57,604 bases of DNA, taken from Clostridiales bacterium UBA4821 (lineage in GTDB: Bacteria; Bacillota; Clostridia; Acetivibrionales; UBA4821). Made by a program: the position numbers and the translations under genes. The notes below the pieces were generated by a model that made no database searches, was not told the origin of the DNA, and saw only the letters and a list, made by a program, of their open reading frames with translations. The stretch covers positions 1 to 57,604 of the forward strand of contig DHFP01000270.1 of NCBI GenBank assembly GCA_002402315.1, written 5' to 3'. Of the stretch, positions 3,541-53,702 are shown piece by piece (within the stretch, counting starts at the first letter, position 1; every line of letters begins with the position of its first letter).

Positions 3541-4560
3541 TTAAATTATATTCTTACGTCTATATTCTTTTGCTATGATATCAAACTCCGACATATTTAT
3601 ATTTCCGTTCCTTCCAATAAAACCTGCTATTCTATAACCCAATCCTTTAAGTTCATTAATATAATTGGATTGCAGCCGGTCTAGATCAAAACTATCATCT
3701 GTATCTTCCCCCTTTAGACCCAGAATTGCCTCACAAAAGCTTAAGCGCTTAGACCATGGATGACACTTAATTGATGTTTTATTATTATGCATATTCAGGT
3801 CATTAATTATAATCCCGCTGAAATTCTTTTTAAGAACTTCACAACCATAATTAATTATTACTGAATTGTCAGGAATCCTGCAAGAATTAACAAACTTGGA
3901 GTCTTTACTGAAGTTTATTATAACATTACATTCTTTAAGCAGATCCGTATTGGTACTGCTAAGTCTAACCACCAGTCCTGTGTCCTGGTAAATATTTTCT
4001 ACCATTTTTGATAGATTACTATGCTCTAAAGAAAGTATGCTTAAAAACCTGATTCCTTCTGATAATCTCGTTATTATTGAAATTATTCCTGCATTTATAC
4101 CATCAACAATTAGTCCTACCCTGAGGTGAGTTATACTGACTTTCAACAGTTTACAGATAGTTTTAAAGATTTCTTCAATATATAAAATAAATAGTTTATC
4201 TCCATTAAATATCTTGAATGCCTCTTTTGAATTAAAATAACCAGTTATTACTTCACTCTCATTAAGTACATCATCTAATAGAACTCTATCAACTTTTAGT
4301 TCCTGTAAAAGCAAATCAATCTGCTCACACCATTTCAATACTTTATCATGATCAGCCAGACTTAATGCTTCTGCCACTGTGGGAAACTGGATTTCATATA
4401 CATCACAATTCATTTCACTGAATATTATATAATGCCAGTAAGGTAACATTCTTTCTAAAAAAAGCTTTCTAAGCCTGGCAGGAATAAATCTATGTAAACT
4501 TCCCTTTAATAATATTTCTTTTAATCCTGATGGGCAATAAATAACAGCTATAGTCTTCAC
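3541..4560 (-). CDS. hypothetical cytoplasmic protein, 339 aa, no family recognised
   Basis: Long uninterrupted ORF with the codon and amino-acid bias of the neighbouring genes; no motif I can name. Confidence 0.6.
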   Translation of the reverse strand: MKTIAVIYCPSGLKEILLKGSLHRFIPARLRKLFLERMLPYWHYIIFSEMNCDVYEIQFPTVAEALSLADHDKVLKWCEQIDLLLQELKVDRVLLDDVLNESEVITGYFNSKEAFKIFNGDKLFILYIEEIFKTICKLLKVSITHLRVGLIVDGINAGIISIITRLSEGIRFLSILSLEHSNLSKMVENIYQDTGLVVRLSSTNTDLLKECNVIINFSKDSKFVNSCRIPDNSVIINYGCEVLKKNFSGIIINDLNMHNNKTSIKCHPWSKRLSFCEAILGLKGEDTDDSFDLDRLQSNYINELKGLGYRIAGFIGRNGNINMSEFDIIAKEYRRKNII

Positions 4561-4804: not shown

Positions 4805-5269
4805 ATGTTTCAAAGGAATTTGAATTCAGGTACTTCTAATTTTAATACTCTGGTAGGAAGCGGCGCCACCTTGGACGGAGACTTTAATGCTGATGGTAAG
4901 GTAAGGATTGATGGGAAAATAAAAGGCCATGTCAGAATAAACGGTGATTTAATCATAGGTGAAACTGCATTAATTCTTGGTAATATATCAGCCGGCAATG
5001 TTGACCTGGCAGGTACTGTTGAAGGTAATATGTACTGCAAAGGCCAGCTTAAACTTGCCACGACGGCAAAACTTACCGGCGATATCCAGGTAAAAGGACT
5101 CTCTATTGAAGAGGGCGCACAGTTTCAAGGTATATGCAGCATGTCCAATCTTGAAAAGGTTTGTAAGGTTAGCAGTACACTTCCGGTGGACTCAGACGAA
5201 ACTGCCAACCGTTTGAAAAAGAAACCTATTATTAGTAGACCTCAATTTAAAGACTCAACTAACTTGTAG
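4805..5269 (+). CDS. bactofilin-family polymer-forming cytoskeletal protein
   Basis: Repetitive beta-helix sequence (DGKVRIDGKIKGHVRINGDLIIGE..GNVDLAGTVEGNMYCKGQLKL..TGDIQV). Start at the ATG at 4805 behind AGGAGG. Confidence 0.8.
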   Translation: MFQRNLNSGTSNFNTLVGSGATLDGDFNADGKVRIDGKIKGHVRINGDLIIGETALILGNISAGNVDLAGTVEGNMYCKGQLKLATTAKLTGDIQVKGLSIEEGAQFQGICSMSNLEKVCKVSSTLPVDSDETANRLKKKPIISRPQFKDSTNL

Positions 5270-48606: not shown

Positions 48607-49698
48607 TCAAGCCCTTAGAAAAAATTTCCCCGGTAATTGTTTAAGAATACCTTTCAACTCCAACATTGTCAGCACCGAATTTATCTTCTGAATATTATGT
48701 CCCGTTCTCCTTAATAAAATATCTATATGTACAGGCTCAGCGCCTATATTATTTATAATTTTTCTTTCATCCTCGTCAAGATTACTATATTGTTGTTCAT
48801 TTTTCTTTTCTGACACAACCTTGATAGTCCTTAACTCAGCAAATTCTTCCAGGACATCTTCAACGCATGTCACCATTTTTGCACCTTCTTTTATTAGTCT
48901 GTTTGTACCCTTGCTTTCATAACTGGTTGCATTTCCAGGAGCTGCAAACACCTCTTTGCCCTGCTCAAGGGCAAAATCCACAGTAATAAGCGACCCGCTC
49001 CTATCTCCTGCTTCAATTACAACAACGCCCATTGAAAGGCCGCTGATTATCCTGTTCCTCGCAGGGAAATTGCCTGACAGCGGTTTCATTCCTACTGCAA
49101 ATTCTGAGATTACTGAACCAGATTTTGATACCTGGTCTATGATCATCTTATTCTCTGGTGGATAAGGAATGTCTACTCCACATCCTAGTACAGCAATAGT
49201 TCTTCCCCCAGCTTCAAGCGCTCCCCTATGAGCAAAGGTATCTACACCTCTTGCCATGCCGCTTACCACTGTAATACCCCTAATAGCCAGTTCAAAGGCA
49301 ATTTCCTTTGCCATATTCAAACCATATATAGTTGCTTTCCTGGACCCAATAATAGCAACAGCCCTATCATCTGATTTCTCAAGCTTGCCCCGTACGTAGA
49401 GCACTGGAGGAGGGTCATAAATGGCTTTCAGATGAACCGGATAATCATCATCAACCGCCCGCAATACATCTATGCCAATTTCCTTTATTCTATGCATATA
49501 AAATTCAAGGTTATCCCTATATTTTTGGTTAAGTACGGTATATATATTCTTTCCCAGCCCCTGGACTCTAAACAGTTGGTTATAATTTGCATTCCAAACC
49601 TCATACGGTGAACCAAAATACTCAATGAGTTGATTAAACCTGCGTGCACCTATTCCCGGCAGGGAGCTTAGCCATACCCAGTATTTAAGATCGTCCAT
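48607..49698 (-). CDS. dprA: DNA processing protein DprA (Smf)
   Basis: Rossmann-like core GSRKAT..GMARGVDTFAHRGALEAGG..AVLGCG; C-terminal wHTH. Confidence 0.92.
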   Translation of the reverse strand: MDDLKYWVWLSSLPGIGARRFNQLIEYFGSPYEVWNANYNQLFRVQGLGKNIYTVLNQKYRDNLEFYMHRIKEIGIDVLRAVDDDYPVHLKAIYDPPPVLYVRGKLEKSDDRAVAIIGSRKATIYGLNMAKEIAFELAIRGITVVSGMARGVDTFAHRGALEAGGRTIAVLGCGVDIPYPPENKMIIDQVSKSGSVISEFAVGMKPLSGNFPARNRIISGLSMGVVVIEAGDRSGSLITVDFALEQGKEVFAAPGNATSYESKGTNRLIKEGAKMVTCVEDVLEEFAELRTIKVVSEKKNEQQYSNLDEDERKIINNIGAEPVHIDILLRRTGHNIQKINSVLTMLELKGILKQLPGKFFLRA

Positions 49699-49762
49699 AT
49701 ATCCACCACCTTTTTACAAACCTATACTAACAAATAAATTGTTTGTTGTCTATTAGTGAGAT

Positions 49763-50477
49763 AGGAAAAACCTCTTCGGTTTTTCCTGCCACCTTTTCCC
49801 GCTGGTTCCCTATGCTCCTTGATAAGAGCGTCTAGATTGTGCTCCATCCTTCCCGGGGTCGCAATCAATTGCCCTCCTTGGCAAGTGATTGCTAAATTCG
49901 ACGTCCTGTCGAATTTCCCCCTCCAGTCTTCCGCACAATCAAGACGCTCTATATCTCGTCACAACGGGAATATCCCGTAATTCCTTCGGAGTTACTAAAA
50001 AGCAACTTGGAAGATATACTGAATATCCCGTTATTCCGAGCATTAGAGATTCTTATATTTTATGGAGGAGTGAAGGGGGTAACTTGCCAAGGAGGGCAAG
50101 TTAAATGGCTATCAGACATGGAGGTCTGTTAGCCATGACCCCGGAAGGACGGAATAAAATATTAGAAGCTCTTAGCGAGGAATTCAGGGATTAAGCAGAG
50201 AGGATTCCAAAAGGAGTACGAAGGGTGCTCCTTTTGAAGGCTGCTTTGAATACAATTTAAGGAATACAGGATATGATTTGTAGTGTGCACCCTGCACAAT
50301 AGCTTCAAAATTTTTGTGCAACTTGCCAATAGATTTGACCTGTCCAAAGGGTGTATAATAAAAGTATATTAACATTTTTATATTATCACGAACACGCTTT
50401 TCGAGCACTCTCATGGCGAGATGTATGGATAGGAGATTTTTCTCTTACGAGTATATACTCGCTTTTTGCTTTTTTGG
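49763..50477 (+). ncRNA. candidate large structured non-coding RNA or leader, family unknown; strand tentative
   Basis: Locally GC-rich: by hand count 33 of 60 bases at 49801-49860 and 29 of 60 at 49861-49920 are G or C, in an AT-rich genome. Only stop-riddled or atypical ORFs. Helices: 49869-86/50082-99 (18 bp, perfect); 49848-60/50137-48 (12 bp plus a bulge); 49826-42/49933-49 (16 of 17); hairpins at 49763-85, 49894-916, 49964-78, 49984-50013, 50105-36 and 50208-36. Two G-U wobbles fit the plus strand only. Confidence 0.4.
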
Positions 50478-50537
50478 CTCAGGCGCTCGTGTTGAGGATA
50501 TATATTTATATATTATAAACTGAAAGGGGATAAAAAA

Positions 50538-50939
50538 TTGAAAAGGATTAAACCATGGGCGATTCTAACTCTAATTATTCTGGGTGCAGTTATTGGTGCT
50601 TTCGTTACTACTCAAGTCCAAGCTAAGCTAGAGCAAAAAAATCAAATTCAACAAAGAATCCAAACAATCCAGAGTGAGTTAGAAAAAGACCCTAATACGG
50701 TCGCTGTTGACGGCTGTATTATAGTCAGGAAGTTTGGGAGTTCTCTCCAGGCAAGCTATGACCAGCAGCTCTATACGCTGTTTGGTTATCCTGATGGAGA
50801 CCAGAATCCTCAACCTTTGATTAATGCATGCCGTAAGTGGGCCAAGACTAACAATTATCAAGCTGAATTTGATGGACCACCGCCAACAATGGCGTGCAAG
50901 AACCCCGTAGTGTATATGAAACTGTTACCTAAAAAGTAA
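50538..50939 (+). CDS. orphan membrane-anchored or exported protein, 133 aa
   Basis: TTG start with AAAGGGGA 8 nt upstream. N-terminal hydrophobic helix KPWAILTLIILGAVIGAFV, then a Gln-rich coil and a Cys-containing domain. No family recognised. Confidence 0.55.
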   Translation: MKRIKPWAILTLIILGAVIGAFVTTQVQAKLEQKNQIQQRIQTIQSELEKDPNTVAVDGCIIVRKFGSSLQASYDQQLYTLFGYPDGDQNPQPLINACRKWAKTNNYQAEFDGPPPTMACKNPVVYMKLLPKK

Positions 50940-50980
50940 TTACGTTCAAAATAAGGATATAAGAAAGAGAGGTCGTAAAA

Positions 50981-51151
50981 ATGGAAAAATTTTTAGGTCA
51001 AATTGCAAATTGGGCAGTACCCGCAGGTTTGTTTTTTACTATAGGAGTGTTTGTTGTACAACATGCTCCCAAAATAAATTTAGACTATCTTTACATACCT
51101 GCCATAATCGCTGGAGCAATTTGGTTCGGCGGTAAATACTACGGTAAGTAG
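50981..51151 (+). CDS. unlisted 56-aa two-TM peptide (below the ORF-track cutoff)
   Basis: ATG at 50981 behind AGAGAGG. Translation MEKFLGQIANWAVPAGLFFTIGVFVVQHAPKINLDYLYIPAIIAGAIWFGGKYYGK, stop at 51149-51151, with a terminator immediately after. Confidence 0.5.
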   Translation: MEKFLGQIANWAVPAGLFFTIGVFVVQHAPKINLDYLYIPAIIAGAIWFGGKYYGK

Positions 51152-51162
51152 TAGTGTTATTT

Positions 51163-51189
51163 TTACTCCCCTTCAAGGGAGTATTTTTT
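51163..51189 (+). terminator. rho-independent terminator of the two-gene plus-strand unit
   Basis: tactccc/gggagta stem, 6-nt loop, then ttttttt. Confidence 0.7.
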
Positions 51190-51193
51190 TGTT

Positions 51194-51221
51194 GAGTCAG
51201 TGGGCGCTGCCCCACTGACTC
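51194..51221. terminator. second GC-rich hairpin between convergent units
   Basis: 11-bp stem gagtcagtggg/cccactgactc with loop cgctgc, 5 nt from the stop of the minus-strand gene. The U-run is only moderate on the plus side. Confidence 0.4.
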
Positions 51222-51225
51222 TGTT

Positions 51226-51441
51226 CTATTTCACTATTTTCCCAACAATCTCTTCCTGGGAAGTTAACCTATTATCAATATGTAAAATATCACCCCAAAT
51301 ACCCTTTACATCCCTCTTGACTTCCTTGATATCAATCTCGACTTCCTTTATATCCTTTTTCAATTCCTTAACGTCAGTCTCAATAATATCTAACTTTGAT
51401 AATTTTTCAAGAACCAATTTTTGAAATTCTTCGCTGTTCAT
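51226..51441 (-). CDS. orphan 71-aa coiled-coil protein
   Basis: ATG at 51441 behind GGAGG with an 8-nt spacer. Heptad-like repeat sequence DVKELKKDIKEVEIDIKEVKRDVKG. The longer ORF-track start at 51531 lacks an RBS. Confidence 0.55.
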   Translation of the reverse strand: MNSEEFQKLVLEKLSKLDIIETDVKELKKDIKEVEIDIKEVKRDVKGIWGDILHIDNRLTSQEEIVGKIVK

Positions 51442-51811
51442 TTCTGCTACCTCCAAAATGAAACTATTTTTATTATACCCTATTTCTAATTTTAAACAAT
51501 AAGGTAAAATATAAAAAAATACCCACCACAAAGGGTGGAATCAAAAAAAATTTATCGGGATTGATATTAATAATACATCAATCTCATACTTTAATGTTAA
51601 TATCATCGTGAAATGCACTTTTTTGACACTGAACAGCAAGAAATATAATTTTCACATCAAAAAATATGTCGTTTGAAAGAAATCCAACATTTTTCATAGA
51701 ATATATATATAATAGTATATATACTTGTATGTTCTATTTCTATTACAGTTAAGAATTATTCAATTTAAACGATAAAATAAGTTTACATGCTGCAAGAAAG
51801 GAGTAAATGCC

Positions 51812-52117
51812 ATGAGGTATTTCTGCATAACAGAATTAGATAATAAAAAACATTTTTTTCTCTCTAACATTAAACCCGATAACAATAAAATTGAATCTTA
51901 TGAACTTCTGGCCGACATGTCCAAAATCCCTGACCTGCAAAAAAATATAGTTATAATAAATTCATCTGCTTTTGCACCCTCAACACACAATCTATTATTT
52001 GTTTACATGCTTCTTTCAGATTTGTGCGTTGAAGAAACTGCCAAAAAGTATTTCACTGAGAAAGCATCCACTTTAGCTATTGAGCACTTAGATTCTTCCA
52101 TAGGTAATAAAAACTAA
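51812..52117 (+). CDS. orphan 101-aa cytoplasmic protein
   Basis: AAAGGAG RBS 8 nt upstream; no recognised motif; a terminator follows. Confidence 0.5.
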   Translation: MRYFCITELDNKKHFFLSNIKPDNNKIESYELLADMSKIPDLQKNIVIINSSAFAPSTHNLLFVYMLLSDLCVEETAKKYFTEKASTLAIEHLDSSIGNKN

Positions 52118-52145: not shown

Positions 52146-52170
52146 GAGGGGCTTTGCCCCTCCCTTTTAT
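52146..52170. terminator. bidirectional terminator (orphan gene / comM)
   Basis: gaggggc ttt gcccctc followed by ccttttat; overlaps the comM stop codon. Confidence 0.65.
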
Positions 52171-53702
52171 GTATTCCAGAACTTTCTGTCAAGACTCCTG
52201 TATTGTATAGCCTCGGCAATATGAGGCATCTGAATATTTTCACTCCCCTCAAGGTCGGCAATGGTTCTTGCTACTTTTAGTATCCTATTATGTGCCCTTG
52301 CACTCAAGCCCATCCTTTCAAAAGCATCTCTCAATATATTCTTCTCGCGTTCTCCTAATTTACAGAACATCGATATCTGAGAGGGCTGAAGCTGTGAATT
52401 AAAGAATATTTTCATGCCCTTGTATCTATCCAATTGAATCTTTCTTGCATTATTAACTCTATCCCTTATTACCGCAGAGCTGTCTGTACTGATACCGGAA
52501 TCAAGTTCGCGATATTTTACGGGCGATACCTCCATGTGGATATCAAATCTGTCCAGCAAGGGACCGGAAATCTTGCTAATGTATTGCTGTACCTGGCTTG
52601 GTGTGCATGTACAGTTCTTTGCCGGATCAAGTAAAAATCCGCACTTGCATGGATTCATGGAAGATATCAGCATGAACCGTGAAGGATAGGATAAGCTGGC
52701 ATTTATTCTTGATATTGTTACCATTCCATCCTCCAATGGCTGTCTCATTACCTCCAGTGCAACCTTTTGGAATTCGGTCAGTTCATCAAGAAATAGTACT
52801 CCAAAATGTGCCAAACTGATTTCTCCAGGCTTTGGTATCCGTCCCCCTCCTACCAGGGACACTGCAGATACAGTATGATGGGGTGAACGAAACGGTCTGG
52901 TTGTTATCAGTGAAGTCTTTGGAGGTAATACTCCTGCTATACTGTGTATTTTTGTAACTTCTAAAGCTTCATCAAATGTCATATCCGGAAGAATTGTCGG
53001 AAGTCTCCTTGCCATCATTGTCTTACCAGAGCCCGGTGATCCAATCATAAGACAATTGTGAGCTCCGGCCGCAGAAACCTCAAGTGCCCTCTTGATATTC
53101 TCCTGACCTTTTACATCCGCAAAATCAATATCATACTTGCAATTCGACTTAAATAAGCTGTCTATATCCACAAAATATGGCTGTATAGGATTATCTCCAT
53201 TCAAGTGGTTAACTATATCCAGAACATTTGAGCAAGGTAATACTTCTATGCCCTTTACCACTGCCGCTTCTTTGGCATTTTCAATTGAAATTACCAGCTT
53301 TTCCATTCCAGATTTGAAAGCGGATATTGCCATAGGGAGTACACCTTTTATTGGCTTAATCTTTCCATCTAAAGAGAGCTCCCCTAAAAATACGTACTTA
53401 TCCAAATCTTCAATAGGTATTTGGCCTGTAGCACTCAATATAGCTAATGCAATAGGAAGATCGTATGACGGGCCTTCCTTTTTAGTATTGGCCGGAGCTA
53501 AATTGGCAGTTATTCTTTTTACAGGAAATTCAAACCCGCTGTTCCTTATAGCTGCTCTTACCCTTTCTTTTGATTCCTTGACTGCAGTATCTGGCAGGCC
53601 TACAATATCAAAAGCAGGCAGTCCGGGTGAAATATCAATTTCAACTTCAACTATGTAGCCGTCTAATCCGATTAAACCAGCACTATTTATCTTGCCTAGC
53701 AT
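52167..53702 (-). CDS. comM: YifB/ComM family Mg-chelatase-like AAA+ protein
   Basis: Lon-like N-domain, Walker A GSPGSGKTMMARR, Walker B VLFLDEL, C-terminal Mg-chelatase subunit ChlI-like region. Confidence 0.9.
   Translation of the reverse strand: MLGKINSAGLIGLDGYIVEVEIDISPGLPAFDIVGLPDTAVKESKERVRAAIRNSGFEFPVKRITANLAPANTKKEGPSYDLPIALAILSATGQIPIEDLDKYVFLGELSLDGKIKPIKGVLPMAISAFKSGMEKLVISIENAKEAAVVKGIEVLPCSNVLDIVNHLNGDNPIQPYFVDIDSLFKSNCKYDIDFADVKGQENIKRALEVSAAGAHNCLMIGSPGSGKTMMARRLPTILPDMTFDEALEVTKIHSIAGVLPPKTSLITTRPFRSPHHTVSAVSLVGGGRIPKPGEISLAHFGVLFLDELTEFQKVALEVMRQPLEDGMVTISRINASLSYPSRFMLISSMNPCKCGFLLDPAKNCTCTPSQVQQYISKISGPLLDRFDIHMEVSPVKYRELDSGISTDSSAVIRDRVNNARKIQLDRYKGMKIFFNSQLQPSQISMFCKLGEREKNILRDAFERMGLSARAHNRILKVARTIADLEGSENIQMPHIAEAIQYRSLDRKFWNT

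Follow-up and report, generated by a model that had tools for sequence, protein, structure and literature searches.

We analyzed a 57,604-nt stretch of DNA (hereafter the window) from Clostridiales bacterium UBA4821 (assembly GCA_002402315.1, contig DHFP01000270.1, positions 1 to 57,604 of the forward strand), and within it the non-coding block between dprA, whose start codon lies at 49698 on the minus strand, and the next gene, which starts with a TTG at 50538. The identity of dprA is secure (Pfam DNA_processg_A, E = 1.6e-78), and no credible gene lies between these two. None of the eight open reading frames (ORFs) of 41–76 amino acids inside the block has a Pfam match at E ≤ 0.1, in agreement with an initial annotation, made by a model from the sequence alone, that had seen no plausible coding sequence there; a pseudogene remnant was discounted on this basis, which covers Pfam only and no blastx-type search against all proteins. 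BLASTN of positions 49790–50260 against phages and plasmids gave no match. The initial annotation had read the block as one large ornate RNA or a very long regulatory leader. We conclude, with high confidence, that it consists of two TwoAYGGAY elements (Rfam RF01731) placed head to head on opposite strands, each ∼155 nt long, and is not one large RNA.

The whole window was scanned against Rfam 15, and positions 49600–50650 were additionally scanned on both strands at a permissive threshold (E ≤ 1). The window contains exactly two above-threshold matches, both to RF01731 (gathering threshold 43 bits, model length 168) and both full length (model positions 1–168): copy A at 49812–49964 on the minus strand (66.8 bits) and copy B at 50030–50186 on the plus strand (63.9 bits). 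Our own core model of the family, R1 (77 positions), scores them at 51.6 and 53.0 bits, respectively, and with Rfam and R1 together these are the only two copies in the window. The permissive scan returned no Rfam match besides them. OLE, ROOL, GOLLD, raiA, HEARO/omega RNA, group I and group II introns, and retron RNAs, the large-RNA, intron, and retron families put forward in the initial annotation, were all without a match in that interval at E ≤ 1. The same annotation had held that a confident Rfam match would make the element a known RNA, and such a match is what RF01731 provides. TwoAYGGAY has been described only in its shape and was judged probably to function as an RNA (Weinberg et al. 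2010, PMC2864571); the window pair adds somewhat divergent members to this catalogued orphan family.

Both copies share one architecture, in which a long closing stem (P1) leads through an inner stem of 4–5 bp to two adjacent hairpins. In copy A, P1 joins 49825–49842 with 49933–49950 (17 of 18 bp) and, in RNA order on the minus strand, is followed by a first hairpin at 49894–49916 (loop A-GGA-C) and a second at 49861–49892 (loop AAGGAG). Copy B mirrors this on the plus strand, with P1 joining 50045–50063 and 50154–50172 (17 of 19 bp), a first hairpin at 50080–50103 (loop AAGGAG), and a second at 50105–50136 (loop AUGGAG). Each P1 is present in the minimum-energy fold, all four loops keep GGA, and the flanking Y of AYGGAY is not kept. 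The 5′ ends of the two copies face each other across a 65-nt spacer (49965–50029).

This arrangement accounts for the helices from which the single large fold had been assembled, most of which are real. The perfect 18-bp pairing of 49869–49886 with 50082–50099 exists because the same hairpin (ACUUGCC AAGGAG GGCAAGU) is the second in copy A and the first in copy B. The second long-range helix, between 49848–49860 and 50137–50148, reflects the homologous 3′ junctions of two inverted copies; it is present, at 77% complementarity over 22 nt, and weaker than had been claimed. The helix described as crossing the others (49826–49842 with 49933–49949; 17 of 18 when taken as 49825–49842 with 49933–49950) is P1 of copy A. 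The 9-bp hairpin at 49894–49916, found in both sequence and fold, and the 13-bp hairpin at 50105–50136 (12 of 13 complementary) are terminal hairpins of copies A and B, respectively. A 17-nt direct repeat (49968–49984 and 50021–50037, 16 of 17 identical) was likewise confirmed, its first copy lying within the spacer and its second extending into copy B. The core is richer in guanine and cytosine (GC) than its surroundings, with GC fractions of 0.51 (49760–49939) and 0.47 (50060–50239) against 0.33–0.42 nearby; the contrast is moderate, parts of dprA reaching 0.49, and had been overstated. The sign of the GC skew flips at about position 50000, which fits two G-rich RNAs on opposite strands. The initial annotation was thus right about a non-coding block with conserved RNA structure and wrong about its architecture, strand, and novelty.

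We surveyed the family more widely, using a consensus two-loop pattern that drew 120 stretches out of the GTDB species genomes. The expected hairpins are present in nearly all of them; Pseudomonas contributes most, and others come from further gamma-proteobacteria and from Lachnospiraceae and other Clostridia. Model R1, searched in 100 sources, identified 151 copies; the loci were chosen for containing the motif, which biases copy density and leaves the orientation bias unaffected. Among copies that neighbor each other within 1.2 kb, 45 arrangements are head to head, four are tandem, and one is tail to tail. Head-to-head pairs hold 90 of the 151 copies, and ∼40% of copies are single. The gap between cores within pairs ranges from 146 to 884 nt, the window pair being the shortest (146 nt). 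Rfam confirms 15 copies in nine Firmicutes loci, five of which carry a head-to-head pair, and the layout occurs in Lachnospiraceae, Ruminiclostridium, and Pseudomonas. Head-to-head pairing is therefore the usual layout of the family.

Exceptions and unusual settings were also recorded. Pseudomonas sp. Bc-h carries three to four tandem copies on one strand (L170, 4797–5982, minus), including a partial duplication 70 nt apart, and in Pseudoalteromonas neustonica two copies separated by 1.1 kb likewise stand in tandem (L241, 5000–5076 and 6122–6198, minus). In Luteimonas, a lone copy lies ∼100 nt from the gene for RNase P RNA, in divergent orientation (L131, 4593–4968 minus and 5066–5141 plus). 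A mainly phage-borne distribution was considered and set aside: a first loop pattern gave 120 matches on viral contigs, almost all of them coding (mostly terminase-like), with five real loci at Pseudomonas prophage borders, and a stricter pattern gave 16 viral matches, chiefly at the same prophage-border locus.

Conservation of the fold is evident across the family. When 150 copies, the window pair included, were aligned by fitting to R1, 91.6% of cells in paired columns were paired (66.2% in shuffled controls), and the covariation score was 0.565, compared with 0.131 after shuffling and at most 0.098 when pairing partners were slid; 21 of the 23 pairs changed on both sides. An alignment of 42 copies built from sequence only gave 79.9% paired against 55.2%. 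Folding 20 copies with 45-nt flanks on the called strand produced 94 G·U pairs and only 7 isolated A·C mismatches, and for 14 of 16 copies the better fold was that of the sense strand. Taken together, this indicates selection on the called strand, acting at the level of RNA or possibly of single-stranded DNA. The two window copies have themselves diverged through compensated changes, which suggests long-standing selection on their structure and not a recent copying event.

Each unit is followed by a hairpin in a mirrored position, rich in A on its 5′ side and in U on its 3′ side. The one beyond copy A, on the minus strand, lies 25 nt past its 3′ end at 49763–49787 (AGGAAAAACC GAAGA GGUUUUUCCU; a 10-bp perfect inverted repeat, weakly terminator-like), and the one beyond copy B, on the plus strand, lies 22 nt past its 3′ end at 50208–50236 (CAAAAGGAGUAC GAAGG GUGCUCCUUUUG; a 12-nt inverted repeat, 92% complementary, terminator-like). 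Both are present in the predicted fold. The symmetry suggests that each hairpin marks the end of its unit, where it may act as a terminator. The hairpin beyond copy B includes one G·U pair possible only on the plus strand (T50217–G50227); this is one of two wobbles that had been cited in support of a plus-strand transcript, and the other (G49889–T50008) falls in a helix outside the family structure. Within the spacer, where both outward-facing promoters would be expected if each copy has its own transcript, we noted by eye a candidate promoter hexamer that both directions could share (TTACTA/TAGTAA, 49992–49997) and candidate −10 elements for the plus strand (TATACT, 50015–50020) and the minus strand (GATATT, 49969–49974). 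A promoter scan assigned dprA a promoter-like site at 49724–49752 on the minus strand (TAGACA, 17 nt, TAGTAT preceded by TG), between the 3′ hairpin of copy A and the dprA start codon, so that read-through from the copy A RNA is not required for dprA expression.

The loops suggest a possible function. In 36 copies that were not selected by the search pattern, both loops read C-A-(N)-GGA-N-G and form penta- or hexaloops, and by our reading of the listing GGA is lost in one loop only. The window loops are CA-GGACG, CAAGGAGG (twice), and CAUGGAGG. The consensus recognized by Rsm/CsrA proteins is A/U-CANGGANG-U/A, usually presented in penta- or hexaloops (PMC6849547, PMC4353343). The conserved loops match the core of this consensus, CANGGANG, and judged by sequence the TwoAYGGAY loop appears to be really C-A-(N)-GGA-N-G, that is, the CsrA/Rsm recognition motif. 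GGA triplets number nine in copy A (eight unpaired) and eight in copy B (seven unpaired), with zero and one on the respective antisense strands. CsrA and RsmE form dimers that bind RNA on two faces, so a pair of neighboring hairpins would fit a single dimer, and gamma-proteobacteria and Clostridia, the hosts named for the family, generally encode CsrA. As a mode of action we tentatively rank first a trans-acting decoy for a CsrA/Rsm-type regulator. Outward transcription of each arm, starting in the 65-nt spacer, would yield an RNA of ∼200 nt that would end at the hairpin 22–25 nt past the motif (49763–49787 or 50208–50236), making both RNAs separate from the transcription units of dprA and of the small-protein genes. 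The two GGA loops of one RNA would form a double docking site for the dimeric protein, and the RNAs would act in trans, keeping the regulator off its mRNA targets. The general form of the proposal, in which TwoAYGGAY modules as a whole are twin RNAs, transcribed outward, whose two C-A-(N)-GGA-N-G loops dock a CsrA/Rsm dimer, is more doubtful still.

Several observations weigh against a CsrA/Rsm decoy. In the window pair, a terminator scan called neither 3′ hairpin, and a consensus sigma-70 scan called no promoter in the spacer; in Pseudomonas, no obvious promoter was seen by eye in the conserved repeat unit of ∼340 nt that contains the motif. The 57.6-kb window has no csrA-like ORF. Beyond the two loops, GGA shows weak enrichment: counts in the window copies do not clearly stand out from dinucleotide shuffles (p ∼0.10 and ∼0.16), and some gamma-proteobacterial copies hold just two or three GGA; over 21 copies, 104 were observed against 70 expected, a modest excess for a sponge signature. 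Binding of CsrA also leaves unexplained the long P1, the outer stems of 25–33 bp in Lachnospiraceae, the head-to-head layout, and the many dispersed copies in Pseudomonas. Finally, a bioRxiv preprint of 24 September 2026 (‘Coevolutionary mining of prokaryotic non-coding elements with a genome language model’, 10.64898/2026.09.22.753630) uses the term AYGGAY 56 times, its abstract included, and its term counts are zero for CsrA and RsmA. They are also zero for recombinase, integrase, repressor, ribozyme, Shine-Dalgarno, kissing, RNA-binding protein, DNA-binding, and RNase III, with two occurrences of ‘transpos’ and three each of antitoxin and prophage. Going by these counts, the preprint probably proposes something other than CsrA, and it may already give the family a function unlike both the decoy and the mobile repeat discussed below.

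Compared with CsrB, RsmX, RsmY, and RsmZ, the likeness lies in GGA loops closed by C-G in penta- or hexaloops that match the A/U-CANGGANG-U/A consensus, in two adjacent hairpins suited to a dimer, and, for the window copies, in 8–9 mostly unpaired GGA. TwoAYGGAY differs from these RNAs in lacking sequence homology or an Rfam match to them and in having two sites conserved family-wide, and its long closing stems, head-to-head pairs, and dispersed multi-copy distribution are foreign to known Csr/Rsm RNAs.

Other explanations of the block differ in how well they fit the comparative data. A single plus-strand transcript of ∼480–700 nt with a closed multi-branch fold, acting as a large ornate RNA or as a long leader of the small-protein genes, can point to the fold of the entire plus strand at 49763–50240, which reaches −221.3 kcal/mol (z = −13.3), below the sum of the separate arms (copy A, −104.6 kcal/mol, z = −9.9; copy B, −92.5 kcal/mol, z = −7.0), and uses the long-range helices. 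Structure in the block is thus far beyond chance, but folding energy is uninformative on one fold versus two, because any large inverted repeat folds that low, and the long-range helices follow from the homology and inverted orientation of the two copies. What decides is that the left half fits the family model on the minus strand only and that, as minus-strand RNA, the copy A region folds 17 kcal/mol better than its antisense; G·U pairs likewise favor placing the halves on opposite strands. Complementarity between the copies of four other head-to-head pairs is, moreover, 70–84%, compared with 89–100% in the flanking stems that close single copies. Together with the wide range of core-to-core distances, the large share of single copies, and the absence of any large-RNA family at E ≤ 1, these comparative data contradict the single-RNA model, which we consider very improbable. 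A role of each copy as a cis-acting leader or attenuator of the gene ahead of it (dprA for copy A, the 133-amino-acid gene for copy B), with a regulator such as an ANTAR-type antiterminator binding the two loops, fits the Rfam label ‘Cis-reg’, the co-oriented positions of copy A relative to dprA (114 nt upstream) and of a Pseudomonas copy relative to mutS (∼200 nt upstream), and the hairpin with a U-rich 3′ side after each window copy. The targets of ANTAR antiterminators are two hexaloops that carry A in the first and G in the fourth position, a rule reportedly set out by Ramesh and colleagues in 2012, and of the four window loops three are hexaloops that fit it (A1, G4). Yet the invariant G3 and A5 exceed the ANTAR rule, the second hairpin is enclosed by P1 and has no overlap with a terminator, and no ANTAR-domain gene was found among the seven neighbors scanned. 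The gene downstream of a copy in Firmicutes loci is co-oriented eight times and convergent seven times (counted from ORF lists), dprA has its own promoter-like site below the hairpin, and the motif was judged not to be cis-regulatory when it was described (Weinberg et al. 2010, PMC2864571). Copy B, in turn, ends 350 nt ahead of the TTG start and has its own hairpin, at odds with the leader of the downstream small-protein genes suggested by the initial annotation. Cis-regulation is accordingly an unlikely explanation.

The main rival to the decoy, about equally tentative, is that both copies belong to a structured repeat that propagates itself, much like REPINs, BIMEs, or MITEs. Its folded strand or inverted pair would be recognized by an enzyme encoded elsewhere in the genome, and the pair would have no dedicated cellular role at this locus. 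Pseudomonas genomes hold many dispersed copies (at least six in four 8-kb stretches of Pseudomonas sp. R1-7), related species carry copies of 85–97% identity at non-orthologous sites, and many copies lie at contig ends or on contigs of 233–394 bp, often breaking assemblies. The repeat unit, at ∼300–340 nt, exceeds the Rfam motif. Inverted doublets of hairpin units are a hallmark of REPINs and BIMEs, and inverted doublets dominate here by 45 to 1, as REP doublets do; a conserved terminal inverted repeat (GGTGTCAAAA...TTTTGACACC) delimits several copies in Lachnospiraceae; and the strand-specific tolerance of G·T would also fit an element moving as single-stranded DNA. Nor is there a constant genomic partner: all-against-all BLASTP of ORFs from 11 Firmicutes loci and the window revealed no protein family shared near the RNAs, the neighbors being unrelated housekeeping genes; no TwoAYGGAY copy lies near dprA in 22 distant dprA loci; and a search of metagenome contigs with DprA yielded no match above 50% identity, with none carrying the motif. 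Against mobility stand the lack of a target-site duplication (by eye), empty site, or partner transposase, including among the seven neighboring window proteins scanned with Pfam, and the window copies themselves, which are without the terminal repeat and have diverged by compensated changes. Apical loops identical between Clostridia and gamma-proteobacteria would be unusual for a MITE, 14 prophage/tailocin contigs of Pseudomonas retain the copy beside mutS at one and the same site, and ‘transpos’ is among the rare terms in the counts from the preprint. Set beside REPINs, BIMEs, and MITEs, TwoAYGGAY is alike in being made of small non-coding hairpin units, intergenic, many per genome (in Pseudomonas), and arranged as inverted doublets with a variable spacer, some with terminal inverted repeats. 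It is unlike them in that its units are 4–8 times the size of a REP, its apical domain is conserved across phyla, no linked RAYT or transposase and no target-site duplication was seen, and compensated changes suggest selection on the fold. The decoy and mobile-repeat ideas are compatible with each other.

Extended forms of the element were seen in two groups. In Lachnospiraceae (L125, 5207–5443 and 5509–5758; L200, 1368–1600, 1740–1967, and ∼4280–4520; L212, 5348–5581 and 5740–5990; L135; L167), P1 extends outward into a stem of 25–33 bp that is perfect or nearly so. The sequence of these outer stems varies from copy to copy, which means that both sides changed together. Several of these copies share the flank GGTGTCAAAA(N)TGC ... 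GCA(N)TTTTGACACC, which looks like a terminal inverted repeat and holds an outward-facing TTGACA. In Pseudomonas (L161, 6600–7600; L213, 4900–5800; L129, 1260–2230), the motif is the core of the ∼300–340 nt unit, which also has conserved hairpins 3′ of this core and a third A(U/C)GGAUA; directly upstream lies a variable run of the hexanucleotides (TTGCTC/TTGCTG)n. The rest of this unit matches no Rfam family.

Relative to the described family (RF01731; PMC2864571), the window copies are alike in being full-length, above-threshold members with a long P1, an inner stem, and two adjacent GGA-loop hairpins, in a clostridial host that belongs to the taxa named for the family. They are unlike it in their loops (A-GGA-C, AAGGAG, AAGGAG, and AUGGAG, not AYGGAY), in scoring 64–67 bits where Lachnospiraceae copies score 95–138 bits, and in lacking the long outer stem and terminal repeat of Lachnospiraceae, besides having the shortest core gap. 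Other members found with the model also vary at the loop flanks, as A-(N)-GGA-N.

The C4 antisense RNA of P1/P7-type phages (RF01695) resembles TwoAYGGAY in that both act, or may act, through two hairpin loops; the two differ in belonging to separate Rfam clans (CL00128 and CL00106), and Rfam, Pfam, and BLASTN scans found no C4 match or phage genes near the window pair. Co-occurrence of C4 and TwoAYGGAY is confined to one conserved Pseudomonas locus. There, in prophage/tailocin contigs by mutS (L014, 2832–2951 and 3723–3809, both minus; L011, L023, L040, L086, and L243–L249), a C4 RNA (RF01695, 77–83 bits) lies 650–800 nt upstream of TwoAYGGAY on the same strand, with a 119-amino-acid ORF and REP-like repeats between them and a divergent LexA/PrtR-like repressor gene; the TwoAYGGAY copy lies ∼200 nt upstream of mutS.

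Downstream of copy B, the remainder of the block (50237–50537, plus strand) is AT-rich (GC 0.33–0.37), has no Rfam match at E ≤ 1, and lies outside both RNAs; we treat it as promoter or leader sequence of the 133-amino-acid gene and not as part of the RNAs. The remark in the initial annotation that this gene has no promoter leaving room for its ribosome-binding site is doubtful, given a TATAAT at 50354–50359 and a TTGAGG-16-TATAAA at 50492–50519, both on the plus strand and both seen by eye, neither of which was called by the consensus scan. The second pair would begin transcription almost at the ribosome-binding site. A plus-strand hairpin followed by a T-run at 50448–50477, called as a terminator-like site, lies ∼90 nt after the TATAAT; together they could represent either a short, separate transcript or an attenuated leader belonging to the 133-amino-acid gene.

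Four small genes (50538–52117) lie between dprA and a Mg-chelatase/ComM-like gene (52167–53702). They encode proteins of 133 amino acids (with an N-terminal membrane anchor), 56 amino acids (with two hydrophobic stretches), 101 amino acids on the minus strand, and 101 amino acids, none with a Pfam family above threshold. The same small genes are called on an identical metagenome contig, L001, where the minus-strand one is called as 71 amino acids; the two short contigs found to encode the 133-amino-acid neighbor are identical to the window. These genes may form a small inserted island. On the other side, a long row of co-oriented minus-strand genes (12000–46500) downstream of dprA and topA looks, by ORF order, like trmFO, codY, and a flagellar/chemotaxis operon, as in Bacillus, and sigE-, sigG-, and spoIIGA-type genes lie upstream of the region on L001. 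Of all these genes, Pfam was used to check only topA, dprA, and those on L001. The host is probably a motile, spore-forming member of the Clostridia.

For the window itself, the result is a correction, since what had been taken for a new large RNA is two copies of a motif catalogued by Rfam since 2010. For the family, the head-to-head rule (45 to 1 over tail-to-tail), the CsrA-type loops, and the dispersed Pseudomonas repeat of ∼340 nt make its function testable, and the head-to-head rule and the C-A-(N)-GGA-N-G loops are the leads worth following. To our knowledge, the protein FliW is the only known antagonist of CsrA in Clostridia. If the decoy reading is true, TwoAYGGAY would provide the first RNA antagonists of CsrA in this group and, in Pseudomonas, a dispersed, possibly mobile, extra layer of Rsm titration, and the functional, perhaps replicating, unit would be the head-to-head doublet and not the single hairpin unit.

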